Counted from the first letter of the stretch, positions 7,252 through 35,724 are shown. The stretch: 64,000 bases of DNA from Verrucomicrobiia bacterium (GCA_036490655.1 DASXDM010000029.1:146670-210669), one strand, 5' to 3'. Program-made: numbers and translations. Notes: generated by a model not told the origin, from the letters alone.

Positions 7252-7395
7252 ACATTACAAAAATGTCACAAACGCGAAAAAGCAGCGAAAAGCGTATTAA
7301 AAAAGATTTTTTATTCTCGCTGTTACAATAAGTTTAACTTGGTTTTTGACCCGGTTAAAGTTATTGTTTCCGGACAACCCTTAGAACCCGTGACC

Positions 7396-10300: not shown

Positions 10301-13300
10301 CCGCCCTGTTCGACAACGGCCACTATTTCGGCACCGGCACTTCCACATTGCAGATCCAGTCCGTTCCAACCAATTACACTGGAAATTATTTCGTGGTCGC
10401 CACCAATACCGGAGGCTCGGTGACCAGTTCGGTGGCGAACATCACCGTCTTGATACCGCCGGCAATCACCCTGCAGCCAACCAACCAGACCGTTCTGGCA
10501 TCCTCCAACGTCACATTCAGCGTCCAGGTCACCGGCAGTGCGCCTTTGGGTTATCAATGGTATTTTAGTGGTGGGCAGTACAATGGCCCGCTCACCGATG
10601 GTGGACAGTTTAGCGGATCAACGGGCACGAATCTGACCATTTCAAATCTTCAATGGACGAACAATGGAACTTATTATCTGCTTGCGACCAACCTCGTTGG
10701 TACGGCGGCCAGTACCGTCGTCACGCTCACGGTGCTAAGTCCCCCGGTGCTGACTGCTCCATTCGTGAACCAGGTCGGCATGGTTTTCAATAATACGACG
10801 CTTGCGCTGTCCGTCACCGGCACACCAGCCTTGTATTACCAGTGGCAGAAAAATGGGACCAACTTGAGCGACGGCGGAAATATCAGCGGCTCCAGCGGAC
10901 CGGCCCTGACCATCACCAATTCGCAACTGGTCGACTCCGGTCAATATACCGCCATTGTCACCAACGCCTATGGCGCTCTCACCAACACGGCCACGCTGAC
11001 GGTGGTACCCATCTTCGACTGGGGCAATGATGTTCTGCTGCCGCCTGCCGATGCGACGAACGTCGTCGGCATCGCGTCGGCCGGCATCGAATTGAGCGCG
11101 GATTTCGCACTACGCGCGGATGGCTCATTGATTGGATGGGGAAATGACGCCTATGGGATTGTGGATATTCCAGCAAATGCGACCAACATCGTTTCCGTTA
11201 CCGGCGGTCCTGAGCAAACGATGGCTATTCGCCGGGATGGCACAGTGGTTACCTGGGGCGGGGGCGGAACCAATGTTCCCGATGCGGCAACAAATGTGGT
11301 TGCGGTTGCGATCCAGGGCTATACCGGTTGCATGGCATTGCGCCAGGACGGGTCTCTTGTCACCTGGAATGGCGTACCCACTCCTCCGGCTAATGCCACT
11401 AACCTGATCGCCATCGGCGCCGGTTTTTATCAATGTCTCGGCGTTCAGCAGAATGGAACAATCATTGCATGGGGCAGTAATTATTATGGTGAAGGGGCGC
11501 CCCCGGCGAATGCAACAAATGTCATCGCTGTGTCAGGTGGGATGAACGGCGCTTACCCCTACAGCGCCGCCTTGCGCGCCGACGGAACGGAGATAGGCTT
11601 CGGATACGCCCCCGGTTTGCCCGCTGCCGCAACTAATCTTGTCACCATCGCCGCGGGTAATAGCCATGTGATGGCATTGAGACAGGATGGGACCGCCTTT
11701 GGATATTCGGGGCCGACGACAACCAATTGCATCGCGATCGCAGTAAACGGGTACGGCTTCCATGACGTGGTTCTGACGCAGGATCCACGCGTGACCATGC
11801 CCCCGGCCATCATTCAATCACCGCTGGGCGCGGTCATTCAAACCAACCAGACTTTCCTTCTGCTGTCGCAAGCCGTGGGCGCCATGCCCATGCAGTCCCA
11901 GTGGTATCTCAATGGCACACCACTCGCCGGTCAAACAAACGGCTGGTTGCTTTTGCCTGCCATTCAAACCAGCCAAGGGGGAGCCTACCAGATTATTTAC
12001 ACGAATAATTTCGGTTCGGCAACCAGTTCGCCGGCCATTGTCTGGACGCCACCGGCTTTCACCAGCCCGCCTGCGACCATGGTTGCCTTTGGCTCGAATG
12101 CCATCTTTAGCGAGACCCTCGCCGGCACTTCGCCTTTCGGCTACCAATGGTATTTCAATGGGACGCCATTGAGTGACGGCGGTTTCGTCAGTGGCTCGGC
12201 TACGGCCAGTTTGATCGTATCAAATTTCCAATCAGCCAATTTAGGCAATTACACGCTGGCCGTCACCAATCTGGCCGGCTCCGTCACAAGTTCCCCCGCC
12301 CTCCTTACTATTGTCAATCCACTCGTAACAACCCAGCCGCAAGGCCAATCCGTCTTGGGCGGCGCAACCGTAGACTTTAGTGTGGCCGCGACCGGCCAGC
12401 AGCCGCTTGCCTATCAATGGGAGTTCGACGGAACCAATATCCTGAATGCGACGAACGACCCGCTGGTGTTAAGCAACGTCCTTGTGAGCCAATCCGGCCT
12501 TTACTCAGTCATCATCACCAACTCCTATGGCACGATTGTCAGTTCCAATGCCACGTTGACCGTGACCGCCTTGAGCTTCGCCAGGCAACCGGTGAATCAG
12601 ACGGTTTTGGGCGGTGGGACCGCAAACTTTACAGTGTCGATCAATGGCCAACAGCCCGTCTTCTACCAATGGGAATTCGATGGCACCAATCTGCCCGGAG
12701 CCACCAATGATCCACTGGTGATCACCAATGTATTGGTAAGCCAGTCGGGGCTGTATTCTGTTGTCGTCACCAATGCCTACGGCTCTGTCGTCAGTTCCAA
12801 TGGCACACTCACGGTTATGCCGCTGGCGTTCAAAACGCAGCCGGCCAACTGCATCACCTGGCCCAGTGGTTCGGCCACCTTCTCGGTGATTGTCTCCGGC
12901 CAGGCACCCTTTGGTTTTGACTGGCAATGCAACGGCGTGGATGTGCCCGGCATGTGGACCAATGTGCTGACCCTCACCAATGTCCAGTTCTCACAATTTG
13001 GGACGTACGATGTCATCGTCAGCAATGCCTACGGCAGCGTTGTCAGTACCAATGCATTCCTGTCCCTCTCTCAAGTTGCCGTTTGGGGAGGTCTTGATGG
13101 TGAATCCAATCTGGCGGCGGGTTTGACGAATATCATCGCCATCGCGGGTAATGGTCAGAGTGTCGTTGACTGCCTGGCGCTCAAGGCCAATTCCACAGTC
13201 ATCCATTGGCCGCGCACCAACTCTGTCACCATCAGCAACATCCTCTCCATGGCCGGTGGAGGGGGTGAGGGCCCGGCAATGGTGCTGACGGTCAGCAACA

Positions 13301-14115
13301 CGGCTGCCGAATTATTGAGCGACGATGTTTTGGAATCCATTTCCGGGTTTACCAATATCGTGGCGGTTGCTCCCTACATGTATTCGCCCCTGGCCATTCG
13401 GACCAATGGCATGCTTGTCTTTGGCGCCCAGTTGGCTGGCGGGCCTCCCAACCTGGGGTCGATAACCAATATAACCAATGCCGTTGCCGTCACGGAAGGC
13501 AATGGCTGGAGCATGGTGTTGAAAGCCGATGGAACAGTGACCGCCTGGGGAGGCAATACATATGGGCAAACCAACGTGCCACCAAATGCAACTAACGTTA
13601 TTGCCATCGCCGGCGGCTTTTATCATGGGCTCGCGCTCAGGAGCGATCACACTGTTATTGCCTGGGGACTTGATGCCAATGGCCAGACCAATGTGCCTCC
13701 CGGCTTGAGCAATGTGGTTGCCATCGCCGCCGGCTTTTATCATAGCCTTGCTTTGAGAGCGAATGGCACTGTCGTGGCCTGGGGCCAAAATACCTACGGC
13801 CAGACCAATGTGCCTCCCGGTTTGACCAACGTTATCGCCATCGCCGCCGGTGCGGCTCATAGCATGGCGTTGATTGGAAATGGGCCGCCCGTCGTCCAGG
13901 CATCCATCTCATCGCCCGCCGCCACTACCAATGGTTTCAGCCTGGCCGTGCCCAGCCAAAGCGGCAGGCTCTATATCCTGCAATTTGAAAACACTTTGTT
14001 CGACACCAACTGGAATTCCCTGCCGCCAGTGCCGGGCAATGGCGGGGTGTTACTCTTGAGCGATCCAACCGCAACCAACAATCTCCAGCGCTTCTATCGT
14101 GTTCAGCAATGGTGA
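7396..14115 (+). CDS. Giant secreted multidomain protein: Ig-like repeats, right-handed beta-helix, two RCC1-like repeat blocks, C-terminal FYRV module
   Basis: ATG at 7396 gives the signal peptide MRRSKTIFRVFLPVILAFLSLIFLAPGQAAAA. Ig-like modules (QPxNQT...YQW...NGT...Y.V.V.N..GS..S..A.LTV) lie at ~7.5-8.0, 9.9-11.0 and 11.8-13.07 kb. A beta-helix of ~20 coils (GGG...STL.NC.L..N) spans ~8.05-9.9 kb. RCC1-like repeats (WG.N.YGQTNVP...NV.AIAAG..HS.AL) lie at ~11.0-11.8 and 13.07-13.87 kb. The tail is ...NNLQRFYRVQQW. Confidence 0.85.
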   Translation: MRRSKTIFRVFLPVILAFLSLIFLAPGQAAAASITTQPQNQTNILGSNAVFTVIGGGQTPLLYQWSFYTTNLTNSAHIGGATNATLTITNITTADAGDYKVVVKNTHGSVTSSIVTLTVLLPATIGTQPANQAVNWMGNAAFAVGATGTGQLNYRWLFNGTRLSDNSQISGSATSLLNISGALPANIGNYQVVVTNNYGSVTSIVATLNVTNVFHYVNLNNSAPQSPYTNWSTAATNIQSAVDVANAGDSIFVTNGMYTLGNRVTSTTTNCVVVTNAISISSVSGPAQTVINGGGTNRCIYLTNGCSLSGFTITNGMTPENGGGIFCSSTNVVITNCVVAGSSAYIQGGGVYQGTLFTCVLTNNYAGGNAQGYPAGGGAGSSVLYNCTVSWNSGGSASGGGLFNCTANQCVLTNNSTGANAGGGAAQSTLNNCLIANNSGCGAGDFSTLNNCTLIGNTAPIYGGGASYSTLTNCTLIANIGVWGGGAEQSTLYNCTLISNSVSSTGGAAYICTLSNCTLIANTASSYYGGGVDQSTLYNSTLCNNFAGQWGGAAYNSTLYNCTLSNNISDGEGGGAYSCILSNCVLTANEATYGSAYGGGAFNSTLITCLVSNNGAYAGGGAYGGSLSNCVIIQNDAVLGGGALGSTLVQCSVLNGQAQYGGGLNSCTASNCILTGNLAIIGSTGAGAGAYTSSLYNCMLYSNRSFFTGGGAALSTLINCTIASNTAYGITGGGGGGVTSCTLTNSIIYFNTTGGNYSGSNNMSWCCTTPLPNDGSGDVVVGVNNTSSAPLFVNLANGNCRLYPGSPGIDSGNNAVVPVTVDLDGNARIVNGTVDLGAYEFQNSPFIEVQPTNQTVPLGAYVTFSVTTYGPGLTYQWQFNGTNILGATSSTYVLSFAQYNSAGTYTVTVTNSYGVASSSNAVLTVVPPTPPSFTLQPTNQTVAVAANVTLAAAASGAPPAAYQWYFNSTALFDNGHYFGTGTSTLQIQSVPTNYTGNYFVVATNTGGSVTSSVANITVLIPPAITLQPTNQTVLASSNVTFSVQVTGSAPLGYQWYFSGGQYNGPLTDGGQFSGSTGTNLTISNLQWTNNGTYYLLATNLVGTAASTVVTLTVLSPPVLTAPFVNQVGMVFNNTTLALSVTGTPALYYQWQKNGTNLSDGGNISGSSGPALTITNSQLVDSGQYTAIVTNAYGALTNTATLTVVPIFDWGNDVLLPPADATNVVGIASAGIELSADFALRADGSLIGWGNDAYGIVDIPANATNIVSVTGGPEQTMAIRRDGTVVTWGGGGTNVPDAATNVVAVAIQGYTGCMALRQDGSLVTWNGVPTPPANATNLIAIGAGFYQCLGVQQNGTIIAWGSNYYGEGAPPANATNVIAVSGGMNGAYPYSAALRADGTEIGFGYAPGLPAAATNLVTIAAGNSHVMALRQDGTAFGYSGPTTTNCIAIAVNGYGFHDVVLTQDPRVTMPPAIIQSPLGAVIQTNQTFLLLSQAVGAMPMQSQWYLNGTPLAGQTNGWLLLPAIQTSQGGAYQIIYTNNFGSATSSPAIVWTPPAFTSPPATMVAFGSNAIFSETLAGTSPFGYQWYFNGTPLSDGGFVSGSATASLIVSNFQSANLGNYTLAVTNLAGSVTSSPALLTIVNPLVTTQPQGQSVLGGATVDFSVAATGQQPLAYQWEFDGTNILNATNDPLVLSNVLVSQSGLYSVIITNSYGTIVSSNATLTVTALSFARQPVNQTVLGGGTANFTVSINGQQPVFYQWEFDGTNLPGATNDPLVITNVLVSQSGLYSVVVTNAYGSVVSSNGTLTVMPLAFKTQPANCITWPSGSATFSVIVSGQAPFGFDWQCNGVDVPGMWTNVLTLTNVQFSQFGTYDVIVSNAYGSVVSTNAFLSLSQVAVWGGLDGESNLAAGLTNIIAIAGNGQSVVDCLALKANSTVIHWPRTNSVTISNILSMAGGGGEGPAMVLTVSNTAAELLSDDVLESISGFTNIVAVAPYMYSPLAIRTNGMLVFGAQLAGGPPNLGSITNITNAVAVTEGNGWSMVLKADGTVTAWGGNTYGQTNVPPNATNVIAIAGGFYHGLALRSDHTVIAWGLDANGQTNVPPGLSNVVAIAAGFYHSLALRANGTVVAWGQNTYGQTNVPPGLTNVIAIAAGAAHSMALIGNGPPVVQASISSPAATTNGFSLAVPSQSGRLYILQFENTLFDTNWNSLPPVPGNGGVLLLSDPTATNNLQRFYRVQQW

Positions 14116-23766: not shown

Positions 23767-26700
23767 TTAGCTGGTTGTTTTCGGCATTTCACCGCCGCGA
23801 TCTTCGTACTCCTCCGTGCTGAACGGCACATGGAAGTCCGGCATGGCCGGGTTCGGGTTGCGGATGCGCGCGAGATAACTCGTGCGCGGCTTCGTCAACA
23901 AGTTGCCGAGCAACAGGTAATTCTGGGATTGGTTTTTCCACTTCATCACGCTGCTTTCCGGATCGCTGATATCGCCGAAGACGATGGCGCCCGCCGGACA
24001 GGCCTGTTGGCAGGCCGTCTTGGGGACGGTGCCTTGAGCTTCAATGAGGCGAACGTCGTTGCCGGCGCCGGCCTTGACCTTCTGCGCGATCTTCGCGTGC
24101 TCGATCCGCTGCGTGCAGTACGTGCATTTTTCCATGACGCCGCGCATACGCACGGTCACGTCCGGATTCTTTGAAAGCTTGATCAGGTCCCACGTTTCCT
24201 CATCGGTCAAAGGCGCTTCGCGGTCTTTCCACCAGCGCACCAAGTCGGATTGGCCGTCAGTTTTGCTGAAGAGCGGCGTCGGATAGTACGGCCCCTTTAA
24301 TTCGTCCAGCGGACGCTTGTTGTAATCGAGGAAATTGAAATGGCGAACTTTGTACGGGCAATTGTTCGAGCAGTAACGCGTGCCGATGCAACGGTTGTAC
24401 GCCATCACGTTCAGGCCTTCCTGGTCGTGGACGGTGGCGTTCACGGGGCAGACGTTTTCGCACGGGGCGGCCTCGCACATCTGGCACATCACCGGCTGGT
24501 TCACGGCCTGCACTTCGTCGATCCAACTCGAAAACTGCTGCTCGTTGTCTTTGACGTAAGTCTCGGGGAATTTCTCAGTCTTGGGATCGGCGGTATAATA
24601 ACGGTCGATACGCATCCAATGCATCTCGCGGCCGCGCAACACCTGGTCTTTGCCCACGATGGGAATATTGTTCTCGCTCTGGCACGCCAACACGCACGTA
24701 TTGCAACCGACGCACGCGGTCAAATCCACTGCCATGCCCCATTGGTGCAAGGCGGTTTTCTCAGCGGCATCGAGCGGGTTGGGATAAAGAGACTGGACGA
24801 TCGGGGGCTCCGGCTCGTGCATCTCCGCCGCGTATGCCGGGTTTTTCTCGAAATCCGCCAGGTTGACTTCGCGCACCGCCGGGCGGCCTTCCATGGACCA
24901 ATGCGTCTGCGTAGTCGCAATGACGTGTGAATCTCCGGTCTTGCTGACCGTGGCGCCGGTCTCGACGTATTTACCGTTGAAAATTTTATAGGCGTTGAAT
25001 CCAACACCCGTGCCAATCCGCCCTGCTTTCTCGCGGCCATAACCGAGCGCGATGCCGAGCGAATAATCCGCCATGCCGGGCTGCGTCCAGACCGGGCCGG
25101 AAACTTTTTTACCATTCAACGAAATCTCCACGACGTCGCCGTTTTGGACACCGAGATCGCTTGCCGTTTTGCGGCTGACAAGGACCGCATTGTCCCAGAC
25201 AATTTTGGTGATTGGGTCCGGCAATTCCTGCATCCAGCCGTTATTGGCGTAGCAGCCGTCGTCCACTTTCGAATCACGATAGAAAACAACTTCGAGGGAA
25301 TTGGCAGAAGGCGCGGAGGCGCTCGCGACGCGAGGAATCGACGTCAATTGATCACTTGGAAGATTCACCGGGCCGCCAGCGGAACCTTCAAGAAAACCGT
25401 TATATAAAAATTTCTTCCAGCCTTCATCACTGCCGCGGAAAGTTTTTTGAACGATCTCGTGCGGGTTTGTCTCCGTTTCACCGGCCAGCCGCGCCAAAAA
25501 TTCCAAATCAGTCAATCCGCCGAAGAGCGGTTGGATCAATGGCTGGATGGCCACGGTAGTTCCATCGCTGGTCAGCGCATCGCCCCAGGACTCGAGATAA
25601 TGGGCGGCCGGGAAATGCCAGTTGGAACCATTCGCCGTTTCGTCTTCGTAATATCCGAGACGAATGACCTCCCCGCTTTTTGCCACACTGATGGATGAAT
25701 CGATCGACCGATGGTAAGCCGGGTTGCCGCCCAAAATCACCAATGACTGTATTGAGTAACCGGATTTAATCAATTGATTGAATTCATCGAGCCTGCCGCC
25801 GAAAGTTTCCGGCGACGGCACCAGGGTCATCGTTTTGCCGATTGCGCCGAGAACGGAATTGATGGCATGAGCAATCAGATGCACTTCCATGGGCTGGCGG
25901 TGTCCGGCGACGACTAAAGCATTTCCACGGTTGGCCAGCAAATCCCTGGCGCATTCCATGATCCAATTGGGATCCACTCCGCCAGGAATCTTGAGGGATT
26001 GCCCGGTGACACCGGCATAAAACGCCGCTGCGATCTGGGGAACCAAACTCGCCGCCACCCGCAGGCGATGGTCTGCATTCGCGCCGGTCAACGTGAACAA
26101 AGATTCGACGCTGTAAAGCCGGCTCATGCCGTCCTTAGCTTTACGGCCAGCAGCATATTTTTGGATATTATTATGCGCATTGTCCTCGCCGCCGATGAAA
26201 TCGCTGTCGAGCGACAGGATGACTTTCGCTTTATCAAAATTAAAGATGGGCTTGACCGCCTGGCCGTAGGCCTGCGTGGCCGCGCGCTGATGGATGCCGG
26301 AATCGATCGCGTCGTACGTGAACCACTTCGACTCGGGCAATTTTCGCGTGATGATCGCCTGCAAGCGCGCCCGTGAAGGCGACGTGCTGGTTTCCGCGAC
26401 GAAGACGAGCCCCCGCCCTCCGTTCGCCGAGAATTTTTGCGACAGGGCACTTAACGCGTTCAGCGCCTGGTCGCGAGAAACCGCCTGGCCATTGCTCACA
26501 AACCGGCGGGCGCGGTCAGGGTCGTAAAGATTCAGGATGGACGCCTGCGCAAAGCGATCGGTGCCGCCATTGCTTCCTGGATAAAGCGAATTGCCTTCAA
26601 CTTTTATCGGACGCCCGTCGTATGACTTGGCGACCAGCGGAATGGCGCCAGTGCGCGTGGGCATGGCGGTCGCATAATATTCGTAGGTGCCAAAAGTGTA

Positions 26701-26976
26701 ATTCTCCGGCTGCTGGCCGAACGGCTCCAGATGCTCTTCCGGACGACGGCAACCTGCGCCTGCGAGGCCCAAGCCCGCCAGCGCGAACGAGGCCGACATG
26801 ATTTTCAGGAAATGCCGGCGCGAAACGTCATCGGGAAATTCGCTGGCGCCTTTCGGAAATTCCCGGTGCAGCCATTCCTTGAACTCCGGCGTATCCGCGA
26901 GTTCGTCCATGCTGCGCCAGTAACGGCGGCCATTTCCATTTCCGGAAGTATGTGAAATTTCGTTCATCGATGACAT
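23767..26976 (-). CDS. actB: Alternative complex III subunit ActB (molybdopterin-oxidoreductase-like / 4Fe-4S fusion, Tat signal)
   Basis: 1069 aa with the twin-arginine signal SRRHFLKIMSASFALAGLGLAGAGC and a molybdopterin-oxidoreductase-like N-terminal half. The C-terminal ferredoxin-type clusters are CVGCNTCVLAC, CQMCEAAPCENVCP, CIGTRYCSNNCP and CTYC...CQQACP. Confidence 0.9.
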   Translation of the reverse strand: MSSMNEISHTSGNGNGRRYWRSMDELADTPEFKEWLHREFPKGASEFPDDVSRRHFLKIMSASFALAGLGLAGAGCRRPEEHLEPFGQQPENYTFGTYEYYATAMPTRTGAIPLVAKSYDGRPIKVEGNSLYPGSNGGTDRFAQASILNLYDPDRARRFVSNGQAVSRDQALNALSALSQKFSANGGRGLVFVAETSTSPSRARLQAIITRKLPESKWFTYDAIDSGIHQRAATQAYGQAVKPIFNFDKAKVILSLDSDFIGGEDNAHNNIQKYAAGRKAKDGMSRLYSVESLFTLTGANADHRLRVAASLVPQIAAAFYAGVTGQSLKIPGGVDPNWIMECARDLLANRGNALVVAGHRQPMEVHLIAHAINSVLGAIGKTMTLVPSPETFGGRLDEFNQLIKSGYSIQSLVILGGNPAYHRSIDSSISVAKSGEVIRLGYYEDETANGSNWHFPAAHYLESWGDALTSDGTTVAIQPLIQPLFGGLTDLEFLARLAGETETNPHEIVQKTFRGSDEGWKKFLYNGFLEGSAGGPVNLPSDQLTSIPRVASASAPSANSLEVVFYRDSKVDDGCYANNGWMQELPDPITKIVWDNAVLVSRKTASDLGVQNGDVVEISLNGKKVSGPVWTQPGMADYSLGIALGYGREKAGRIGTGVGFNAYKIFNGKYVETGATVSKTGDSHVIATTQTHWSMEGRPAVREVNLADFEKNPAYAAEMHEPEPPIVQSLYPNPLDAAEKTALHQWGMAVDLTACVGCNTCVLACQSENNIPIVGKDQVLRGREMHWMRIDRYYTADPKTEKFPETYVKDNEQQFSSWIDEVQAVNQPVMCQMCEAAPCENVCPVNATVHDQEGLNVMAYNRCIGTRYCSNNCPYKVRHFNFLDYNKRPLDELKGPYYPTPLFSKTDGQSDLVRWWKDREAPLTDEETWDLIKLSKNPDVTVRMRGVMEKCTYCTQRIEHAKIAQKVKAGAGNDVRLIEAQGTVPKTACQQACPAGAIVFGDISDPESSVMKWKNQSQNYLLLGNLLTKPRTSYLARIRNPNPAMPDFHVPFSTEEYEDRGGEMPKTTS

Positions 26977-27659
26977 GCCGAACAGTTTTGCAATGATTCC
27001 ACGTGCATATGGTCGACCAGTTTCTGGCCTTCCACGGCCTGGTCGTGCGCGGCTTCAACGGAATTTGTGCTCCAAACCCAGCCTAAATCCGTCACTTTGT
27101 CCACCGGGCGGATATGGGACGCCGGGTCGCGATGGCAATTCAGGCAAAAACTCATGCTCAACGGCTTGGCGTGATAGACGGTGTCCATCTCATCCACGCG
27201 CCCATGGCATTCCACGCAACTGATACCGCGGCGCACGTGCACGGAATGGTTGAAATACACATAATCGGGCGTGATATGGACCTGCACCCAGGCGATCGGC
27301 TTGCCGGTCGCGGCGCTGTCGCGGACAATGGCCAGTCGCGGATCGTCTTTCAGGACGGTGCTATGGCAGTTCATACAGGTTGAAGCGCCGGGCAGATTGG
27401 AGAACCATGATTTTTCCACTCCATTATGACAGTAACGGCAATCGATGCCGAGGGCGCCGGCGTGGACTTTGTGGGAAAAGGGCACCGGCTGCACTGGCTG
27501 ATAGCCAACTCGCGTGTAGCTGGGTGTACAATAGTAGGCAACCGCCGCCGTCACCACTCCGCCAGCGATGGCAAGAACAATGACGATCCATAACGGCAAC
27601 CAATTTGTCCATTTCGGGAAAATTGCAGGCATTTCAAACGGCCGTGAAGGCCAAACCAC
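26964..27659 (-). CDS. actA: Alternative complex III subunit ActA (pentaheme cytochrome c)
   Basis: 231 aa with an N-terminal TM helix and five CxxCH sites (CRYCH, CMNCH, CVECH, CLNCH, CSACH). It overlaps actB by 13 nt. Confidence 0.85.
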   Translation of the reverse strand: MVWPSRPFEMPAIFPKWTNWLPLWIVIVLAIAGGVVTAAVAYYCTPSYTRVGYQPVQPVPFSHKVHAGALGIDCRYCHNGVEKSWFSNLPGASTCMNCHSTVLKDDPRLAIVRDSAATGKPIAWVQVHITPDYVYFNHSVHVRRGISCVECHGRVDEMDTVYHAKPLSMSFCLNCHRDPASHIRPVDKVTDLGWVWSTNSVEAAHDQAVEGQKLVDHMHVESLQNCSACHR

Positions 27660-28008: not shown

Positions 28009-28818
28009 TCATTTCCAATCAAACACGGTTTCGGCGTCCAGATATTTCCATGAATTGCCTTTTTTCGTCATGGGCGCCGTGCGGCCGATATATTCCAGAA
28101 CTCGATGCGGTGCGGCCTGTTCGATGCCAAAGTAAATGGGATTTACGAATCGTGCGACGATCACATTGGCGGCGGTCATTTTCAGCCACACGGTTGGCTG
28201 CCCTGCCACCGGCTTTAATCCAGTAGTCTTGCGCAAGGTGAAGTTGAAAGCCCTGTCCCGCTCAAAGGCAACCATCGAAAATTTGAGCGTCGCTCCCTGC
28301 ATCAGCTCGTCCCAATGGATCAGGATGAAGGGATAGATCGAATCGTCAGTCAGCAGGTCTTTTGGAAGGTCTCGTGTTACGCCTTTGCCGCGGTCACCTG
28401 TGCCGGAGCCATGATTGATAATCAGTTTTTGCTGTCCGGCATGGTCGGGGTCGGCAACGATTTTCATTGTTCCCCACAGGCCGGCCTGGGGGTTATTCAT
28501 TTCAAAAGAGACCATGTTTCCAGATTCGTAGAGAACATGTTCCTGAGCAGCCACGCGGCCGTCTGGAGTGTTGAAGAGGCGGTCGACATGGACGGTGCTG
28601 CCTGAGCGCGTCGCGGTGCGACGAAAGGTGAACAGGATATTTGTCCGATCCGAACCGATGGCATACACAGTGCCGGTGAACAGGGGTATTTTAGCGTAAT
28701 CAAACGGTTCCGAAGCCGCCACCTGGTCCTGGCCTGACGCCAGACCGCGAGCGAGATACAAAATCAACAGGGTGATCACCTTAATGACGCCGCAGCATCG
28801 GTCGGTCAACTTATTCAT
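28009..28818 (-). CDS. Secreted hypothetical protein
   Basis: ATG at 28818 (MNKLTDRCCGVIKVITLLILYLARGLASG) gives a signal-like N-terminus. 269 aa with coherent non-repetitive composition. No family recognised. Confidence 0.55.
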   Translation of the reverse strand: MNKLTDRCCGVIKVITLLILYLARGLASGQDQVAASEPFDYAKIPLFTGTVYAIGSDRTNILFTFRRTATRSGSTVHVDRLFNTPDGRVAAQEHVLYESGNMVSFEMNNPQAGLWGTMKIVADPDHAGQQKLIINHGSGTGDRGKGVTRDLPKDLLTDDSIYPFILIHWDELMQGATLKFSMVAFERDRAFNFTLRKTTGLKPVAGQPTVWLKMTAANVIVARFVNPIYFGIEQAAPHRVLEYIGRTAPMTKKGNSWKYLDAETVFDWK

Positions 28819-28934
28819 GCGACACTGTAATCGTTGACGATGCCGAACTCCAAGACAGGTTTTCAAAAAAGTGATTTTTTGGAAGTCGACTCATTCCAGA
28901 GAGGTTGGGGTAAGAAAAGAAAACTGCTTTTACA

Positions 28935-29564
28935 TCACGGCCCGTTTAACTGAAAAAATAGATTTCCCGCGCCTGGCGTGACGTTGACACCTTCTGTGGT
29001 GCCATTAGTAAAAATGGGATCGCTATTCGTCGTCCAAGTCCCCGTCACCAAATTGCTGTTTTGCAGAACGATAAACCCGCCGGGAGGCACCGGCCAGGTC
29101 AGCATCAGATTCGTGCCGGTCGCCGCGATGGCCACGGATGGCGGCACGAGTGAGATCTGAAAGCTCACATCGGCAAGGTCATTTGTCGCAAGCTCATCCC
29201 CTCCCCCTGCCACGCTGGCCGTTCCGGAAAAAATTCCCACGGGAGCGGACGGATTGATATAAACGCCCATCGCGACGTCGCTGTATGTTTGATTGGAGGA
29301 AAAGATGCCCGGAATGTTTTGAAAGAAAAAATTGGTGTCTCCGGCCAGATAATTGGTCGCCGCATTGGTGAAGCTGAACTGGATGTTGTTCAGATACAGA
29401 TTTGTCAACGAGTTGTTGGTGAACGTACCGATAAAGATCACTTCATTGCTACCGCTCCCAGGCAGCGCTGCCGGGGTGAGTGAAAAAGTCAGGTTCGCCC
29501 GGGCCGGCATGGCCAACAGCGCCAGCGCGGCCAGCAATGCGGGAAGTATCAATCGTGTGCGCAT
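28935..29564 (-). CDS. Small secreted protein with C-terminal FFQL module
   Basis: ATG at 29564 gives the signal peptide MRTRLILPALLAALALLAMPARA. The tail is NLMLTWPVPPGGFIVLQNSNLVTGTWTT...GAGNLFFQLNGP. The start lies 1 nt after the stop of the upstream gene. Confidence 0.6.
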   Translation of the reverse strand: MRTRLILPALLAALALLAMPARANLTFSLTPAALPGSGSNEVIFIGTFTNNSLTNLYLNNIQFSFTNAATNYLAGDTNFFFQNIPGIFSSNQTYSDVAMGVYINPSAPVGIFSGTASVAGGGDELATNDLADVSFQISLVPPSVAIAATGTNLMLTWPVPPGGFIVLQNSNLVTGTWTTNSDPIFTNGTTEGVNVTPGAGNLFFQLNGP

Positions 29565-29565
29565 A

Positions 29566-31119
29566 TCATTGTCCGATCGCGAACAGCTTGGCGTTGTTGA
29601 TGGCATAAACGACACCGTTCACCCCGATGATGGTGGGTGTATACGCCTCGCCGATGCCGGTAGTGAGGACGTTCGTCTGGGTCAGCGTACTGGAAGTCAT
29701 GTCCCAGCGGTACAGTTTGCCATCCTCGTTATTGGCCAGGATGGATTTGGTGAAAGGATCGACGGCAGCGGAATTGATGCACCATTCGCGGACGGCGCCG
29801 GGATAACTATTGGTATATTCCGGGTCGGGCGTGGGACCCGCAATGGTCAGGACCTCGTTCATCACTGTACTACCGGAAATGGGATCGATTTCGCTGTTTT
29901 GCGGATCCAGGACGGCAATCTTATTTATACCATTGCCTCCCCCAAACCCGGCATAGTTATTATATTTGGTCATCAAAAGATAAGGCGATCCGCCATGATA
30001 CGACGGCACCATGGTGGCCGGCACAACCGAAGCGGTATCGTCCCAGCCAAACGCCCCGGGGAGTTTGAGTTGCGTCAATGTGCTGTTGAAGTGCAACAGC
30101 CAACCGCGGCTGTGGTTCGAACCCGAGGGCGATTCCAGCACGCCATAATAGACGTCGCCATCCGGCCCGACGGTGGGTGAAGCGGTGCCATTATCATTCA
30201 CGTTGGCGCTGGTGCCAGGACTCTTAACATCCTTGAGGAGGACATTGTGCAACGGGGTCAACGTCTGGCTGTCGAGCGCGGCCAGATAACCGGCACCGGA
30301 AATCCCGACAGTGGCAGCGACATAGAGCGTCTTGTGGTCATTGCTCAGAGCCGGGGAACAATTCAACGCAATGTTTGTGACGGTCGTCTTGCCCACGATA
30401 TTGCTGGCGGCCAGCCAAATGCCCGTGCCGTTGTAATCGATCCGCGCAATCCCGCCTTGAAGGTTAAGCGGGTTTGGGCCGGTGACCATAAATCCAAAGA
30501 AAATATCTCCGTACCGGTCAGATGTGATGGGCGTATTGATGAAGACGTTGGTTTGATACGCATTCGTGTTGGCGAGATAATTGGCCAGTCCATAGAACGC
30601 GATTTGGCCGATGACCGGAGAACTGCCCGCCTGATCCGGAGTATCGCAATAATAGATCGTCCCACCTGCTCCGGCGAAATAGAGCCGGTTGTTTGGCGTG
30701 AGCGCCGGTGAATAACCCGGAATCCAGGTTCCCGCCGCCAGGGGCGGCAAAATATAATCCGTGGATGCTGTCCAATTGGTTGCGCCAGTTGCGCCGGTCA
30801 ATGCCTCAACTTCAAATCCACCGTTGGTGCCGGTCTTGACGGGGATGATGACGGTGTTGGCGCGGGTGATGATTGGGGAGCCGTAATGGATGAGCAATTC
30901 GCTCCCGCTGTAATGGGGCGCCAGATCTACCGGCGTCTGCCATAAAATGCGATTGATGGACTGGGATGGCACGGGCGCGATGGCATCATGCTGCGCGTCA
31001 TGGCTGTAGCTGCTCCAGGGAATCCGAATGCTTTGCGCCGGCAAATTTTGCAGAAGCAAAAAAAACAGGGACAAAAGCAATACGAAGCATTTGGAGACGG
31101 CGCCGGCAAACCTCAACAT
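29566..31119 (-). CDS. Secreted beta-propeller-like (PQQ/BamB-type repeat) protein
   Basis: ATG at 31119 gives the signal peptide MLRFAGAVSKCFVLLLSLFFLLLQNLPAQS. Recurrent strand blocks (GTIYYCD, LYVAATVG, GDVYYGV, GVVYAINNAKLFAIGQ) suggest a propeller. The fold call is tentative. Confidence 0.65.
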   Translation of the reverse strand: MLRFAGAVSKCFVLLLSLFFLLLQNLPAQSIRIPWSSYSHDAQHDAIAPVPSQSINRILWQTPVDLAPHYSGSELLIHYGSPIITRANTVIIPVKTGTNGGFEVEALTGATGATNWTASTDYILPPLAAGTWIPGYSPALTPNNRLYFAGAGGTIYYCDTPDQAGSSPVIGQIAFYGLANYLANTNAYQTNVFINTPITSDRYGDIFFGFMVTGPNPLNLQGGIARIDYNGTGIWLAASNIVGKTTVTNIALNCSPALSNDHKTLYVAATVGISGAGYLAALDSQTLTPLHNVLLKDVKSPGTSANVNDNGTASPTVGPDGDVYYGVLESPSGSNHSRGWLLHFNSTLTQLKLPGAFGWDDTASVVPATMVPSYHGGSPYLLMTKYNNYAGFGGGNGINKIAVLDPQNSEIDPISGSTVMNEVLTIAGPTPDPEYTNSYPGAVREWCINSAAVDPFTKSILANNEDGKLYRWDMTSSTLTQTNVLTTGIGEAYTPTIIGVNGVVYAINNAKLFAIGQ

Positions 31120-31464
31120 GGTAATCTGTTTAGCACGATAAATTGCCGCAAACAAACTTTTTTGGGTGTTTTTTATCATTTCGTTCAAGAGGCTTGATTT
31201 TTTCTTGCTGATGCCTTCGCCAAGCCCGTAAAAACGGTTAAATTTAATCTTCTTTTCAAATTGAACTCGACACGCCAACCATAGCACGCATGGTGCCAAC
31301 GAAATAAACGTTGAAATGGCTTCTCGGCTACGAACGAAGTCAAAGCTCGCCTACATCAAACTAAACCGCCAAACGCCTTGCCCACCTCGTGGCGCTGTCC
31401 CGGTCAACACAAGGACATTGCAGGAGGTTCTTTCACTCGCAACGTCCGGATCGCTTTCGGTCAT

Positions 31465-31528
31465 GGCGGCGACCCTTTCAACTATGTCCGGACAAAATAA
31501 ACGTGCTGACCACAATCGCAACATCAGA
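31465..31528. repeat. 64-nt repeat module C, copy 1
   Basis: ggcggcgaccctttcaactatgtccggacaaaataaacgtgctgaccacaatcgcaacatcaga recurs at 32030-32093 with 3 mismatches. Confidence 0.8.
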
Positions 31529-31967
31529 AGCAGATTTAACAGGAGGAAACGGAGTAGCCTGAAAAAGCGGAAAACGGAAGGCGGAAATAACCGCAAAGAA
31601 CGCAAGGAACGCAAAAGACGGGGATTTGATCCGCATCCCGCAGGGCGGGAGCAGATATCCGCAGATTTTTTGGGCGGAACGCTGCTCCCGGCCAGCGCCA
31701 TTTGAAATGGTCATCGCATTCATACAGCATGATTTTAGCTTAAAACAGGAAAGTGTAATGTTGCCGGGCAACATAAAATGAATAGGCGGGTTGGCCGCGA
31801 AAAAGGGAGTTTAGACAGAATCAACAGAATGGACACAATTGCGGGTTGAGAAAACCGGATAGTACGCAGGGAGTTCTGTAGTCCCGACGGGACTCCGTCG
31901 GTAATGAATCACAAACCCACCGATAAATCAGTGGGCTATGGTCTCTCGCCCTGCCGGGCTTTCCCAG

Positions 31968-32027
31968 GGAGAGGGAACAGCGAGAGGACGATTTGCGTCG
32001 ATTGAATGCCTGGAAGAATGCGGCAGG
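31968..32027. repeat. 60-nt repeat module B, copy 1
   Basis: ggagagggaacagcgagaggacgatttgcgtcgattgaatgcctggaagaatgcggcagg recurs at 32184-32243 with 2 mismatches. Confidence 0.8.
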
Positions 32028-32029
32028 TT

Positions 32030-32093
32030 GGCGGCGACCCTTTCAACTATGTTCGAAGAAAATAAACGTGCTGACCACAATCGCAACATCAGA
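32030..32093. repeat. 64-nt repeat module C, copy 2
   Basis: Direct copy of 31465-31528. Confidence 0.8.
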
Positions 32094-32150
32094 GTTAATC
32101 TCGATGTGCGAAGACACCCCTTTTCCTTGAAAGAAGGCCTTTCTCTTTTC

Positions 32151-32196
32151 TCACCCCTCACCCTAACCCTCTCCCCGTTGAGGGGAGAGGGAACAG
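32151..32196. repeat. 46-nt hairpin element (REP-like), copy 1
   Basis: tcacccctcaccctaaccctctccccgttgaggggagagggaacag has a 10-bp stem (ccctctcccc / ggggagaggg). It is identical over 46/46 nt to 45255-45300. Confidence 0.85.
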
Positions 32197-32243
32197 TGAG
32201 AGGACGATTTGCGTCGATTGAATGCCTGGAAGAATGTGGCAGG
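32184..32243. repeat. 60-nt repeat module B, copy 2
   Basis: Direct copy of 31968-32027. It is fused to the 3' arm of the hairpin element. Confidence 0.8.
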
Positions 32244-32380
32244 CGTGAGTGCGCTCGCCCTACTAATTATTCAGAGACTCGTTACCTCGTCTCCTACCAG
32301 GATTTTATGGCTCGGCAGGAGCCTCGCCCTACCGGTGGGATTGAAGAAGAACCACCATGGCACAAGGAAAGATGGGAGGT

Positions 32381-32480
32381 ATTTCCGCCGCCCCGTTGGG
32401 GCGGATTCGTCTTTCTGAATTCGATTCCACGGGTTCCGCTGCGCTCCACCCGTGGCTACCGGCCTGCATCCCTTCGGATG
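32381..32480. repeat. 100-nt repeat module E, copy 1
   Basis: atttccgccgccccgttggggcggatt...ccacgggttccgctgcgctccacccgtggctaccggcctgcatcccttcggatg contains two internal hairpins. A second copy lies at 47003-47103 in the same orientation. Confidence 0.8.
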
Positions 32481-32662
32481 CGGAGAGCGTGGAAACTGAT
32501 TCAACTCTTTCAGAGTTGATGGCGGTGGATTGGTATCCCGGGGTAGCTCGTGCCTCGCAACCCCGGGCTGAATGATTTAATCCCTTCGGGATTAGTGTTT
32601 CTACAACGACGCTCGTTTTGGATTTCAGGGCTCGACGCTCGCCCCACCAGGCCGCTCGCTTA

Positions 32663-34003
32663 TCACTGCAGTTGCTGTGGCATTTGAAAAACGTAATCGT
32701 AGAGGGATGCCAGGGTCACACCGGTGGGCTTCAGGTTTTTGTTGAAGACAAACGTTGCCGCGGTCTCAAAATCACGGATGGTCAGGCAATAGGTATTATT
32801 GACCATGATGCCGAGCAACTCCCCTGCTCCACTGAAAACAAAGTCTCCACGCGACGGGTTGAATTGCCCAAAGAGTCCCTTAAGCAGGTTGCGATCCAGT
32901 TTCACGTATTGCGGCGTGTTCAGTTCGATCTGGAAACTGCATTGGCCGTAGTATCCCTCGTCAGCACCGATCAGGACGGCATCCTGGAATTTATAGGGGT
33001 CCGAAGAGAGACGATATATTTTGCTGCCAAGCTGGCGCGCTTCGTCTTGTGAAACGGGGATCATCACGACGCGCGGATCCTGGGCGTTGAACGAGAGCGC
33101 ATGGACCGGCACCTGTTCCGCATTGAAACTCAAATCGCCGGTCAACTTGTTCCAATCGGTGCCGGGGTCCCAAAGCTTCAAGGGGGTGGCATCCACATGG
33201 CAAACCGCATAAATATTGGTGCCATCGGTGACGAGGATCGTTTTGGTCTGTTTGTCCCGGGAAGTGTCCATGCTGAAAAAGCTGGTGCGCTCGCCGGAGA
33301 TGGCCGCATCGACGCGGTTGGAAACAAAGTCACTAAAGATGGTGTTCGGCGCGAGCACGGTGTTGTTGCGGATTTCGGCGGTCAATTCAGCCGAATTGGT
33401 CGCGAGAGATTTGAATCCTTCGGCCAGGCGGGCGTTTTCGGCCCGGGCCGCATCGATCTCCTGCTGCATGAGGTCGGCCTTCTGGGTCGCGGCCGTCTTC
33501 TCCACTTCAGCCAATTGCAGCTGGTTGACCAGTTGTTGCTGTTGCGCATCGGCCAACTGATTGCTCTGCGAAAGCTCTTTGAGTTGTGACCGGAGCGAAT
33601 CGGCCAATTGCGCCTGCTGCCGCTCTTCCGCCGTCCGCTCGGCGATCTGCTGCTGGGAGAGGGTTGAAGTATTTTGCAATTGTTGGTTCAGGCTGGCGAT
33701 ATTGGTCTGGGCGGCGGAAAATTGCTGCTGTAATTGTTCGTTTTGCGATTCCTGCGTCGTGGCCGTTTGGCGGGCGGAAGCGAGTTGCTGTTGCAGCTGC
33801 GCCTGGTTCTTGTGTTCATCCTGCAACGCCATTTTCATGACTGCCGCCAGATCGGTGTTGGCATTGGCCACTGGATTGGTGACGACTTCCATCGTGGCGA
33901 CCTGCCGCGAATTCTGGTTGGCCATGTGGTTGATGTCCGTTGAGAAGGTCAACAGGCTCAACAACAGGAAGTCACAAATGACGATGAGGATGCTGCGGTT
34001 CAT
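32663..34003 (-). CDS. Single-pass membrane protein with ExbD/TolR-like Asp-containing TM, long Gln-rich coiled coil and C-terminal globular domain
   Basis: 446 aa. The N-terminus MNRSILIVICDFLLLSLLTF has a lone Asp in the TM helix. About 170 aa of Gln-rich heptad-like sequence follow (QAQLQQQLASARQ...QQQQLVNQLQLAEVEK), then ~230 aa of non-repetitive sequence. The start overlaps the upstream stop (ATGA). Confidence 0.7.
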   Translation of the reverse strand: MNRSILIVICDFLLLSLLTFSTDINHMANQNSRQVATMEVVTNPVANANTDLAAVMKMALQDEHKNQAQLQQQLASARQTATTQESQNEQLQQQFSAAQTNIASLNQQLQNTSTLSQQQIAERTAEERQQAQLADSLRSQLKELSQSNQLADAQQQQLVNQLQLAEVEKTAATQKADLMQQEIDAARAENARLAEGFKSLATNSAELTAEIRNNTVLAPNTIFSDFVSNRVDAAISGERTSFFSMDTSRDKQTKTILVTDGTNIYAVCHVDATPLKLWDPGTDWNKLTGDLSFNAEQVPVHALSFNAQDPRVVMIPVSQDEARQLGSKIYRLSSDPYKFQDAVLIGADEGYYGQCSFQIELNTPQYVKLDRNLLKGLFGQFNPSRGDFVFSGAGELLGIMVNNTYCLTIRDFETAATFVFNKNLKPTGVTLASLYDYVFQMPQQLQ

Positions 34004-35724
34004 GACACGGCGGGCGTTGGGGTGGGCGTGAGGCGCGCGGGGGCGACCTGTCGTTCTTCATTGATGCTCTGGACTTCGGCATCCATCAGCAATCGCCGGC
34101 GCAGCGGGCGCAGATGGAAGATCTTGAAGATGACCACGAAAATGATCCCGAACGACGTGGAGGAGTAGGCGGCCATCAGGCTGAATTTGATCAACCCGAG
34201 CGAGGCGACGATCAGGGACACAATGGTCCCGACGAAGCCCAGATACAGGCCCGCGTCGAAGAGATGGTCTTCGTTCTCGAGCAGTTTCAATTTCATGCGC
34301 GGCGGGATTTTCTGGCGGCGGATCTCCGCCAGTTTCACGAGGCACGAGGTGTAGAGCAGCGCTTGCAGGACAAAAAACACCAGCAAGGTGATGAATATGG
34401 TTGGGTTCATAACAGTTTGGGTGACACCGGCGATTCCTGCGGGGACGCTTCCGCCCAACTGGGGCGACAGCAGTCGAAAAGAAAAATGTTGTCCTTTCTG
34501 GCTCTCCTGGGCGAGAAACGGCTCGCTCAAGAGCAACACGGCCAGCAGAAAACCGACGGAAAATAAAAATTCGCGCGCCAGGTGAAACCCGCGCACTTGC
34601 AAGGTCTTGTCGACCGGCGGGACCGCATAATGCAGCGCCATCGCCAGCGAAAATCCCGCGAGCAGATATAAAAGCCACTTTACCACCATCGCCAGCCAAA
34701 AATTTTGAACCGCCAGGCGCGCCGCCAAATGATAGATCCCCCCGGCCGGATGATAGGCCGTCACGCGACGTTCCAGAGCGGGGTTATATAATCGCACGCC
34801 GCCGACGGCCAATTTGCCCACGCCTCCCGCGCCATCCCGCAAGCTGACGCCGAGGTCCGCATAACCCGTGTCCGGAAATTTGACCACATAGTCCGAGACG
34901 GCCGCCGGATCGCCGGAGAGTTGCACCGCCGCGAACAAGACCGGAAGATTATCATTCGCATTTCGCACCAGGTTCGCCAGGTTATCGAGCGTCTCCGCGT
35001 CGGGGACGTCGGCCACAAACGCCGTCAATTGATCCCAGTTGAATCGTTGTCCGAGCGAAAGGAAATCCATCAGGGTCCGCTCCAGGGGGGCGGAATTCCC
35101 CACGTTGTTGGCCTGGCCGGCAAAATCCGAAATATCATTGTCCAAACTTTTTTGGAGCTTGTTGTTGTCCAGCAACAAGCCGCAGAGGCTGACCCCGGCA
35201 TCAAACGCTTGCCCCGAATCGGAAGTCGAGGAAGGCAAAGCAACGGTATTATTCAAGGAGCGGGTATGTAAAAGCGCAGAGACCGCGGGATTGGGAGAAT
35301 TTTCCAGGTGGGCGAGCGCGGCCTCGCGGTTTTCGCGCTGGATAAGAAATTGGGTCATCGAGGCCGAGGGGCTGGAATTGAAGATGTGTTCCGTGCCGGT
35401 ATCCGTCCCCCAAAAGAATGCCGTGGGATTTTGCATCACGAGGTTGGTGAGAGTCGCAGTCAATGACCCAACGCCGGGGATGTTTTCCATTTGCGCAGCC
35501 TGGGCCAGGAAGGCCGCCGCCCCCAATCGATTCCCTGCCGCAAGTGTTTTGGTTTGTCCGAGCAGCGATGAGGTACCCTGCCCCGCGGTGCGCAAAACGC
35601 CGCCGTCCACTGCGCTCCAATGCGCGGGGATCAGCAGGCCGCAGCCCAAAAGCACAATGCCCAGGACAGCGCAGATCAAAAAACCATAGAGCCGGCGAGG
35701 CTTCCTCGAATTGTTCACAACCAT
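34000..35724 (-). CDS. Polytopic membrane protein with MotA/ExbB/TolQ-like C-terminal channel helices
   Basis: 574 aa: an N-terminal TM, a ~300-aa soluble domain, then five TM helices. The last two (GLYLGFVGTIVSLIVASLGLI and SLMAAYSSTSFGIIFVVIFKIF) resemble the conserved helices of the MotA/TolQ/ExbB family. An AGGAG lies just upstream of the ATG. Confidence 0.7.
   Translation of the reverse strand: MVVNNSRKPRRLYGFLICAVLGIVLLGCGLLIPAHWSAVDGGVLRTAGQGTSSLLGQTKTLAAGNRLGAAAFLAQAAQMENIPGVGSLTATLTNLVMQNPTAFFWGTDTGTEHIFNSSPSASMTQFLIQRENREAALAHLENSPNPAVSALLHTRSLNNTVALPSSTSDSGQAFDAGVSLCGLLLDNNKLQKSLDNDISDFAGQANNVGNSAPLERTLMDFLSLGQRFNWDQLTAFVADVPDAETLDNLANLVRNANDNLPVLFAAVQLSGDPAAVSDYVVKFPDTGYADLGVSLRDGAGGVGKLAVGGVRLYNPALERRVTAYHPAGGIYHLAARLAVQNFWLAMVVKWLLYLLAGFSLAMALHYAVPPVDKTLQVRGFHLAREFLFSVGFLLAVLLLSEPFLAQESQKGQHFSFRLLSPQLGGSVPAGIAGVTQTVMNPTIFITLLVFFVLQALLYTSCLVKLAEIRRQKIPPRMKLKLLENEDHLFDAGLYLGFVGTIVSLIVASLGLIKFSLMAAYSSTSFGIIFVVIFKIFHLRPLRRRLLMDAEVQSINEERQVAPARLTPTPTPAVS

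Follow-up and report, generated by a model that had tools for sequence, protein, structure and literature searches.

The stretch of DNA analysed here (the window: 64,000 nucleotides (nt) of a Verrucomicrobiia bacterium, GCA_036490655.1, DASXDM010000029.1:146670-210669) carries on its minus strand two overlapping genes, indicated as A and B, whose products are tentatively read as an ion-conducting module of the inner membrane bearing a long periplasmic arm. All features of the pair described below lie on that strand. Gene A (34000-35724) encodes a predicted inner-membrane protein of 574 amino acids (aa), in which a first transmembrane (TM) helix is followed by an all-alpha periplasmic domain and then by five more TM helices. 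Gene B (32663-34003) encodes a predicted 446-aa bitopic protein, composed of a TM anchor, a linker, a coiled-coil stalk and a chymotrypsin-fold domain. The ATG of B shares the tetranucleotide ATGA (34000-34003) with the TGA of A, which is, as read from the sequence, an arrangement of translational coupling. Both open reading frames (ORFs), their coordinates and their overlap had been reported in a first-pass annotation, and were found again on the minus strand; the A helices GLYLGFVGTIVSLIVASLGLI and SLMAAYSSTSFGIIFVVIFKIF and the B start MNRSILIVICDFLLLSLLTF, quoted there, are all present in the translations, and the anatomy described for the two proteins agrees with the AlphaFold2 (AF2) models of both. 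Residue numbers of A refer to the 574-aa ORF of the window; in the database twin that was modelled, which begins 2 residues further on, every number is smaller by 2. The observed features of the pair are far beyond chance: the pair, its gene order and, mostly, the 4-nt overlap recur across genome and metagenome loci.

The AF2 model of A, built on a 49-sequence alignment (mean predicted local distance difference test, pLDDT, 81.7; predicted template-modelling score, pTM, 0.72), starts with a TM helix at the N-terminus, followed by an all-alpha domain of about 300 residues, a pair of TM helices, a loop with about 35 disordered residues and, finally, three long helices, the last of which extends about 20 residues past the membrane. 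Because the charges read from the sequence follow a positive-inside distribution (RKPRR before TM1, KLAEIRRQK..RMKLK after TM4, HLRPLRRR after TM6), the N-terminus, the TM2-TM3 loop, the TM4-TM5 loop and the C-terminus are placed in the cytoplasm, and the 300-aa domain would be periplasmic. This domain (about residues 36-338; 34711-35619) is modelled with a pLDDT above 90 over most of its length; it gave no fold match when the whole chain was searched with Foldseek, and is almost without conserved columns in the wider family (median identity 30%).

The most conserved region of the family is the C-terminal three-helix unit of A (about residues 438-548; 34081-34413), formed by TM4, a cytoplasmic segment (KLKLLENEDHLFDAG), TM5, and TM6 with its cytoplasmic extension. 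The resemblance to ExbB/TolQ is located in this unit as well. TM4 and TM5 are no more than about 20-25 residues (KLAEIRRQKIPPRMKLKLLENEDHLFDAG) apart, both in the sequence and in the model. Two motifs are found in this unit: G496-F-V-G499-T500 in TM5 (34225-34239), the putative counterpart of G-L-x-G-T in TM2 of ExbB/TolQ, and T523-S-F-G526 in TM6 (34147-34158), the putative counterpart of T-x-x-G in TM3. Conservation was evaluated on 117 full-length representatives, 25-54% identical (median 30%), and counts are given out of 118. Since these representatives were collected by a profile search and not by motif patterns, the result is free of the ascertainment bias that affects the counts made on the genome set. 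E401 and Q454 are invariant, and so are G496, G499 and G526 (118/118 each). Position 500 is T in 109 sequences and S in 8 (T or S in 117/118), and position 523 is T in 101, N in 13 and S in 3. E485, D490, Y520, S522, K534 and R539 are each conserved in at least 97% of the divergent representatives, and K349, together with Q454, is an invariant or near-invariant polar residue within the membrane. The glycines and threonines singled out by the first-pass annotation are thus the most conserved positions of the whole family, even at this median identity, and because they hold these positions the GxxGT and TxxG motifs are regarded as the functional core of the A family. In both A and B, the highest conservation lies in the TM segments and not in the soluble domains.

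The AF2 model of B (mean pLDDT 68 overall) shows a TM helix at residues 4-21, a disordered linker, a helix at 52-189 and a beta-rich domain ending in a helix. The first 23 residues, MNRSILIVICDFLLLSLLTFSTD (33935-34003), form a predicted single TM helix with the N-terminus inside, and include an aspartate, D11 (codon 33971-33973), placed within the cytoplasmic half of the bilayer and some 7 residues in from its cytoplasmic surface. In 120 homologs, otherwise about 60% identical, this segment is at least 98% invariant, 21 of its 23 residues being invariant. D11 is present in all 77 close homologs of the genome set. D11-F12 is retained in all 65 divergent partners (22-35% identity), where the neighbouring C10 varies among C, V, S and I, so that the dipeptide is common to all 142 B partners examined. 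The conservation of D11, which the first-pass annotation had proposed as a check, is therefore clear at both close and distant range.

The Gln-rich coiled coil noticed at the first reading was borne out as well. The stalk (about residues 50-217; 33353-33856) contains 21.7% Gln, 17% Ala and no Pro, and residues 52-189 are modelled as one continuous helix. When hydrophobicity is averaged over the family, the power spectrum peaks at periods of 3.5 and 7, and the heptads stay in phase from residue 50 to 119 and from 106 to 217, the register shifting once, near 110-120. The stalk is therefore a genuine coiled coil; its heptads cover about 165 residues, or about 25 nm if straight, a length that would suffice to cross the periplasm. 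B homologs differ in length mostly by multiples of 7, and the variation is located in the stalk. When the distance from the D11-F12 motif to the head was measured in 164 B homologs, two series with steps of 7 residues were obtained (203/210/217/224/231/238 and 207/214/221/228), and 133 of the 164 fall in two of the seven residue classes, a count that overstates the number of independent events because the sequences are related. Given these series, insertions and deletions in the stalk tend to keep the heptad register between anchor and head, a pattern that points to selection on the (angular) register between the two.

The C-terminal domain of B (32666-33331) had been listed as belonging to no known family; from its model it can be securely assigned a chymotrypsin/HtrA-like fold. 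A Foldseek search of the B model against the PDB gave 73 matches at E<=0.001, the best with E 7e-7 and probability 1.0. The 50 best matches comprise 49 HtrA-family chains and one trypsin-like domain of an IgA1 protease; the HtrA-family chains matched by the model belong to DegP, DegS, DegQ, HtrA1, HtrA3, AlgW and plant Deg1/2/9. The target-normalised TM-score of the head reaches 0.56, its pLDDT is mostly 75-94, and the order of its secondary structure elements (two barrels followed by a C-terminal helix) fits the chymotrypsin fold. In the model, H269 lies at the end of the third strand (AVCHV) and D309 just ahead of the strand VVMIPV, while S384 is found in NPSRGD, ten residues ahead of GELLGI. 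By position and order, these residues correspond to the triad of DegP and form a candidate triad. They are conserved in 76, 77 and 74 of the 77 close homologs, respectively. Among the 65 divergent partners, H269 is kept in 57, D309 in 65 and S384 in 54, the histidine being replaced in 8 and the serine in 11; strictly invariant in these divergent heads are D309-P-R311, G353 and G386-D387. An hhalign comparison of the head with DegP/Q/S was non-significant (P 0.15); it placed S384 on DegP S210 and GELLGI on GELIGI, leaving His and Asp unaligned. Fifty B family members gave no match to Pfam Trypsin, Trypsin_2 or PDZ at E<=10, and a phmmer search of the C-terminal domain against the PDB sequences returned nothing. 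Catalytic competence of the head encoded in the window is plausible, and some members of the B family may have become inactive.

Close homologs number 1392 for A and 1713 for B, and nearly all the named ones come from metagenome-assembled genomes (MAGs) of Verrucomicrobiota; all are unnamed or labelled "hypothetical", save three automatic Joint Genome Institute (JGI) labels of the coiled-coil type on B. When the A profile was run against 1.84 billion cluster representatives, 748 clusters (50% identity) passed E<=1e-3 and 328 passed E<=1e-30; among the 150 best, all sequences other than fragments show the full-length architecture. The pair was found in at least 157 species-representative genomes, from the Limisphaerales/Pedosphaera group of the Verrucomicrobiota; some record titles point to other phyla, and these are taken to be mis-binned MAGs. 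The true taxonomic range is wider than these genomes, because the scan used motif patterns specific to the Limisphaerales/Pedosphaera clade. A scan seeded with divergent members added at least 499 loci from metagenomes (marine, soil, freshwater, bioreactor and human gut).

B directly follows A in 76 of 80 species-level genome loci, the 4 misses being contig ends, and in about 70 of 80 divergent metagenome loci, for a total of about 145 of 160. Most of these 76 genome loci, and many of the metagenome ones, have the 4-nt overlap. Co-conservation of the two genes, a further check named in the first-pass annotation, is thus clear, and the neighbours vary. Clustering of the flanking ORFs, in genome as well as divergent loci, revealed no third conserved gene; MacB-type ATP-binding cassette (ABC) genes occur in at most 22 of 81 loci, lpxA in 8 of 80, and a peptide-deformylase-like gene in 36 of 80. 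One clade has A alone (loci L103, L107, L108, L121, L151, L153, L157 and L162, human-gut contigs among them): there A keeps every core motif, and at L153 it is followed by lpxA, pdxA, tig, clpP and clpX. Two A cluster representatives lose frame near the end of A, and one of them runs on into the N-terminus of B (...MNRSILIVICDFLLVSLL...); these are probably assembly frameshifts, which incidentally confirm the adjacency of the two genes.

The resemblance of A to the stator-type channel subunits was evaluated by hhalign, using as references E. coli TolQ/R, ExbB/D and MotA/B together with verrucomicrobial ExbB/ExbD, enlarged to 118 ExbB/TolQ sequences. The C-terminal unit of A aligns colinearly with ExbB/TolQ, with TM4 on TolQ TM1, TM5 on TM2 and TM6 on TM3, the match continuing into the cytoplasmic extensions of TM6 and TolQ TM3. 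Both motifs are in register: LYLGFVGTIVS of A falls on PYIGLFGTVWG and AAYSSTSFGI on AEALIATAIGL, so that G496/G499/T500 match TolQ G141/G144/T145, and T523/G526 match TolQ T178/G181. With growing diversity of the alignment, the P-value went from 0.009 to 0.0044 and 0.0037; a second run gave 0.0048, with only the GxxGT stretch confidently aligned. The forward score (24.3-24.7) exceeds that of a reversed-profile control (13.5-17.6) and the mean of block-shuffled columns (14.4-15.6, standard deviation about 3), being reached by 1 of 200 and by 2-3 of 150 shuffles. Gaps of about 80 columns are needed between TM4 and TM5 of A. The residues that mark the Pfam family PF01618 (MotA_ExbB), G-x-x-G-T in the penultimate helix and T-x-x-G in the last, are present in A, and so, as far as model and charges indicate, is a topology of the same type, in which a hairpin of the last two helices runs cytoplasm-periplasm-cytoplasm after a helix entering from the periplasm. 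For the TM helix of B against TolR/ExbD, the comparison was not significant (P 0.05-0.1); its best local alignment puts D11 on TolR D23. No hhalign match to E. coli MotA or MotB was obtained. Taken together, the scores are suggestive of a real resemblance between A and ExbB/TolQ, in register and better than about 99% of composition-matched shuffles, which is far below the level that establishes homology.

Covariation between A and B was also computed, and was set aside as evidence for contact, being essentially a clade split confounded by phylogeny. By mutual information over 133 A-B pairs, TM5/TM6 take part in 10 of the 25 top inter-protein pairs, compared with 22% of the positions; covarying positions include A523 with B16 (T-S in 89 pairs, N-N in 34, N-T in 8) and A498 with B14.

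On these grounds A and B are interpreted, with a probability of roughly 0.45, as an ExbB/ExbD- or TolQ/TolR-like ion-conducting module of the inner membrane that energises a periplasm-spanning arm. Several copies of A would surround the TM helices of B with their TM5-TM6 hairpins, and D11, in the cytoplasmic half of the membrane and level with T500 and T523 of A, would be the ion-binding residue, gaining and losing a proton with the passage of ions. B would thereby move relative to A, and this movement would be transmitted through the short linker to the rigid shaft of about 25 nm, which would carry the chymotrypsin-fold head across the periplasm toward peptidoglycan or outer membrane, where the head would cleave or grip a target; the periplasmic helical domain of A might act as a collar around the base of the shaft. 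B would therefore fuse the role of TolR/ExbD (the TM helix with its aspartate) and that of TolA/TonB (the periplasm-spanning arm), with the addition of a new terminal domain. We infer the A-B contact, ion conduction, the 5:2 stoichiometry, rotation or pulling, catalysis by the head and its substrate. A more ambitious form of this proposal appears rather unlikely: the pair would be an unrecognised class of 5:2-type motors, widespread in Verrucomicrobiota, in which the Asp-bearing axle is a 25-nm coiled-coil shaft with a serine-protease-like head, and the proton-motive force would rotate or pull this proteolytic or substrate-gripping head on the distal side of the periplasm.

Several results weigh against the interpretation as an ion-conducting module. 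A and B match no family in Pfam, NCBIfam or PADLOC, apart from coiled-coil noise on B, and none of 49 A family members matches PF01618 even at E<=10. Profile searches of the PDB sequences, made with full-length A, B and a diverse set of A C-terminal units, gave no chain of a 5:2 motor or of a protease; Foldseek on the whole A chain returned no MotA/ExbB, and only non-specific helical-membrane matches at E>=0.06. A hidden Markov model (HMM) built from the 118 ExbB/TolQ sequences scores A at E of about 4, and the hhalign probability of the A-ExbB/TolQ comparison is only 4.5-8.9%. A decoy set of 8 TM families reached a best P of 0.1; it is too small, and A is not sharply separated from it. Canonical verrucomicrobial ExbB/ExbD, encoded in the flanks of five pair-carrying loci, are detected at E of about 1e-10, and because they are so easily detected in related genomes, A and B are not simply fast-evolving copies of ExbBD. 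As to architecture, A lacks the substantial cytoplasmic domain that links the first core helix to the second: this domain measures about 90 residues in ExbB/TolQ and is large in MotA, where it generates torque, compared with about 20 residues in A, which has in addition three extra TM helices and the 300-aa periplasmic domain. B is without the periplasmic domains of ExbD, TolR or MotB, no ExbD/TolR-type or OmpA-like domain being found by Pfam, NCBIfam or inspection of the AF2 model. HtrA-type proteases are usually trimers, a poor fit to a dimeric axle. Finally, 8 of the 80 divergent loci are without a B gene within 6 kb of A, which is followed there by lpxA. Of the membership in the 5:2 superfamily suggested by the first-pass annotation, topology, gene order and the conservation of the motifs and of D11 have thus held; formal family membership has not (hhalign P 0.0037-0.009), and the lack of any significant profile or structural match to MotA/ExbB or ExbD was an outcome that the annotation itself had named as speaking against its proposal. 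The pair is accordingly treated as stator-like, as a working hypothesis (a possible new relative or analogue of the proton-driven ExbB/ExbD-type motors), and not as a demonstrated member of the stator family.

The main competing explanation, quite possible though short of an even chance, dispenses with the motor: the pair would be a tethered periplasmic protease or pseudoprotease complex, in which B is a signal-anchored, stalked S1-like protease and A its membrane scaffold, sensor or regulator. D11 would then be a structural polar contact locking B to A, for example through K349 or Q454, polar TM residues that could indeed pair with an aspartate, and GxxGT and TxxG would be ordinary packing motifs, of the small-xxx-small type common in TM helices. 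Such a complex agrees with the absence of significant similarity to stator families, with the near-complete retention of H269/D309/S384 in close homologs (76/77, 77/77 and 74/77), and above all with the HtrA/chymotrypsin-like fold of B, the only statistically solid structural assignment for the pair. It leaves unexplained, however, why both motifs should occur in the register, order and topology of ExbB/TolQ and at the membrane depth of the partner's aspartate. Moreover, conservation is much lower in the soluble domains than in the TM core, an unusual pattern if the latter were only an anchor, and of the 65 divergent partners 8 have another residue in place of H269 and 11 in place of S384, whereas none has replaced D11.

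It is less probable, and on the whole unlikely, that A is itself a channel or transporter for an envelope-related substrate and B a lineage-specific accessory or processing partner, which may be lost or relocated. The presence of six TM helices and of an invariant ladder of polar residues (E401, Q454, T500, Y520, S522, T523) would suit a transporter, and the 8 of 80 divergent loci in which A stands alone with all its core motifs, before lpxA, pdxA, tig, clpP and clpX, would suit a dispensable B. Against this, B may be encoded elsewhere in the lone-A genomes, the pair is intact in about 90% of the loci and mostly translationally coupled, the TM helix of B is as conserved as the core of A, and A matches no transporter family. 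Highly improbable is a last possibility, by which the N-terminus of B is a cleaved Sec signal peptide, B a soluble periplasmic coiled-coil protein and its link to A one at the level of the operon only. A short positive n-region followed by a hydrophobic stretch of about 16 residues would allow it, as would the Ala-Leu-Ala or Ala-Leu-Thr that, by eye, precedes Arg in divergent B proteins like a signal-peptidase site. Signal peptides are, however, normally poorly conserved and without acidic residues in the h-region, whereas here 21 of 23 residues are invariant in 120 homologs and D11-F12 occurs in all 142 partners.

The ion-conducting module proposed here may be compared with the described 5:2 motors, which reviews list as MotAB, ExbBD, TolQR, GldLM, AglRQS and Zorya, and which, according to one review, share a conserved mid-membrane aspartate on the B subunit (PMC9389320). 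As in ExbB-ExbD and TolQ-TolR, the gene of the pore subunit comes first and is followed by that of the Asp-TM subunit; the second subunit crosses the membrane once, N-terminus inside, by a helix that bears an invariant aspartate, and the output would be directed into the periplasm. The E. coli tolQ-tolR and exbB-exbD genes are adjacent with short gaps. B differs from ExbD/TolR in joining in one chain the Asp-TM, a periplasm-spanning element like TolA/TonB and the chymotrypsin-fold head, and the pair differs from the Ton and Tol systems in that no TonB, TolA, TolB or Pal gene adjoins it. With MotA-MotB and PomA-PomB it has in common the 4-nt overlap, seen between E. coli motA and motB, the Asp-bearing single TM helix in the second gene and a conserved core made of the last two helices of the first; unlike MotB, B is without the OmpA-like peptidoglycan-binding domain, and no flagellar genes are found near the pair.

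GldL possesses two TM helices, with a different placement of its key charged residues. GldL-GldM and PorL-PorM are described as having a bitopic second subunit with a long periplasm-spanning shaft, by which motion is passed from an inner-membrane motor to the outer membrane (PMC9389320, PMC8986121). The likeness, drawn from these descriptions, is one of functional analogy only: the shaft of B is a coiled coil and not a chain of folded domains, and no genes of the type IX secretion system (T9SS) are adjacent. Zorya ZorA-ZorB also combines a stator-like pair with a very long coiled coil. There the coiled coil belongs to ZorA and is cytoplasmic, whereas here it is on the Asp-TM subunit B and would be periplasmic. 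An assignment to Zorya was rejected, as the PADLOC ZorA models miss A and touch B only via coiled-coil noise (E 0.004), no ZorC/D-like effector genes are found and the neighbours are housekeeping genes. An FtsX/EnvC-like or PqiAB-like pair was likewise rejected, for lack of family matches and for a different domain order.

With the HtrA family (DegP, DegQ, DegS, HtrA1; MEROPS S1C), B shares, at about residues 225-446, the two-barrel chymotrypsin fold with its C-terminal helix, and a candidate His-Asp-Ser triad in the canonical order, spaced by 40 and 75 residues; by standard numbering, the triad of DegP is spaced by 30 and 75. DegS, too, is anchored to the membrane by its N-terminus. B differs in having no PDZ domain and no family match at the sequence level, in the coiled coil of about 165 residues inserted between anchor and head, and in that His and Ser are not universal (57/65 and 54/65).

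Neither family is annotated in Pfam, NCBIfam or PADLOC, no source gives either protein a meaningful name, and a search of the literature found no described system of this kind. In the known motors, ions are conducted by exactly the residues that are most constrained in this pair. Each of the ion-driven stator-type motors known so far (MotAB, ExbBD, TolQR, GldLM, ZorAB, AglRQS; reviewed in PMC9389320) turned out to have a distinct way of exporting the energy of the inner membrane. If the pair is a motor, the proton-motive force would be coupled to a protease-fold domain through a coiled-coil shaft. To our knowledge, none of the 5:2-motor families listed above has such an output. A motor of this type would offer an entry point into the envelope biology of a poorly studied phylum, and could be the phylum's own solution for energised maintenance of outer membrane or cell wall. 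If it is not a motor, the pair would still represent a new architecture, a membrane-tethered, stalked S1-like protease with an obligate polytopic partner.

In the window, the upstream neighbours of the pair are an Opp-type ABC transporter, secG, tpiA and pgk (the last recognised from the translation only). A Pfam scan of the neighbours found no TonB, Pal, flagellar, gliding or T9SS gene adjoining the pair, as the first-pass annotation had noted, with housekeeping genes upstream and downstream ORFs without a Pfam match. Since the neighbours are housekeeping genes, the family is large and the named genome hits are all Verrucomicrobiota, the context suggests that the pair serves a core function of the envelope and is not part of a defence or mobile system.

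The downstream ORFs are three consecutive ones on the minus strand (28009-31299; 285, 226 and 577 aa), without a Pfam match at E<=0.001 and with hydrophobic N-terminal stretches that look, by eye, like signal peptides. The 1.35 kb immediately downstream of B (31290-32650) hold no convincing gene. Two direct repeats are found there, one of 65 nt in two copies (31464-31528 and 32029-32093; 95% identical) and one of 61 nt in two copies (31967-32027 and 32183-32243; 97% identical); neither has further copies within the 64-kb window.

At other loci of the family, a 192-aa gene, peptide-deformylase-like by eye, lies about 0.5-1.2 kb upstream of A on the opposite strand and divergent from it (36 of 80 loci, within L088-L167). 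In some subdivision-3 genomes, A is preceded on its own strand by an ABC exporter of the MacB/FtsX type together with a membrane-fusion protein (6494-9861 in L001; at -2.5 to -6 kb in L014 and about 20 others), and in L001 two unannotated genes (690 and 432 aa, with a 4-nt overlap) are located between exporter and A. In five related genomes, canonical exbD, accompanied in 4 of the 5 loci by exbB, is found about 6-8 kb downstream of the pair on the opposite strand (at about 16.3-17.4 kb in L012, 15.6-16.7 in L019, 15.9-17.0 in L022, 15.9-17.1 in L030 and 17.0-17.5 in L034), a vicinity that may be plain synteny. Within the window, the six-frame listing also contains two very long ORFs, one of about 2286 codons on the plus strand (7252-14112) and one of about 1094 codons on the minus strand (23770-27054).

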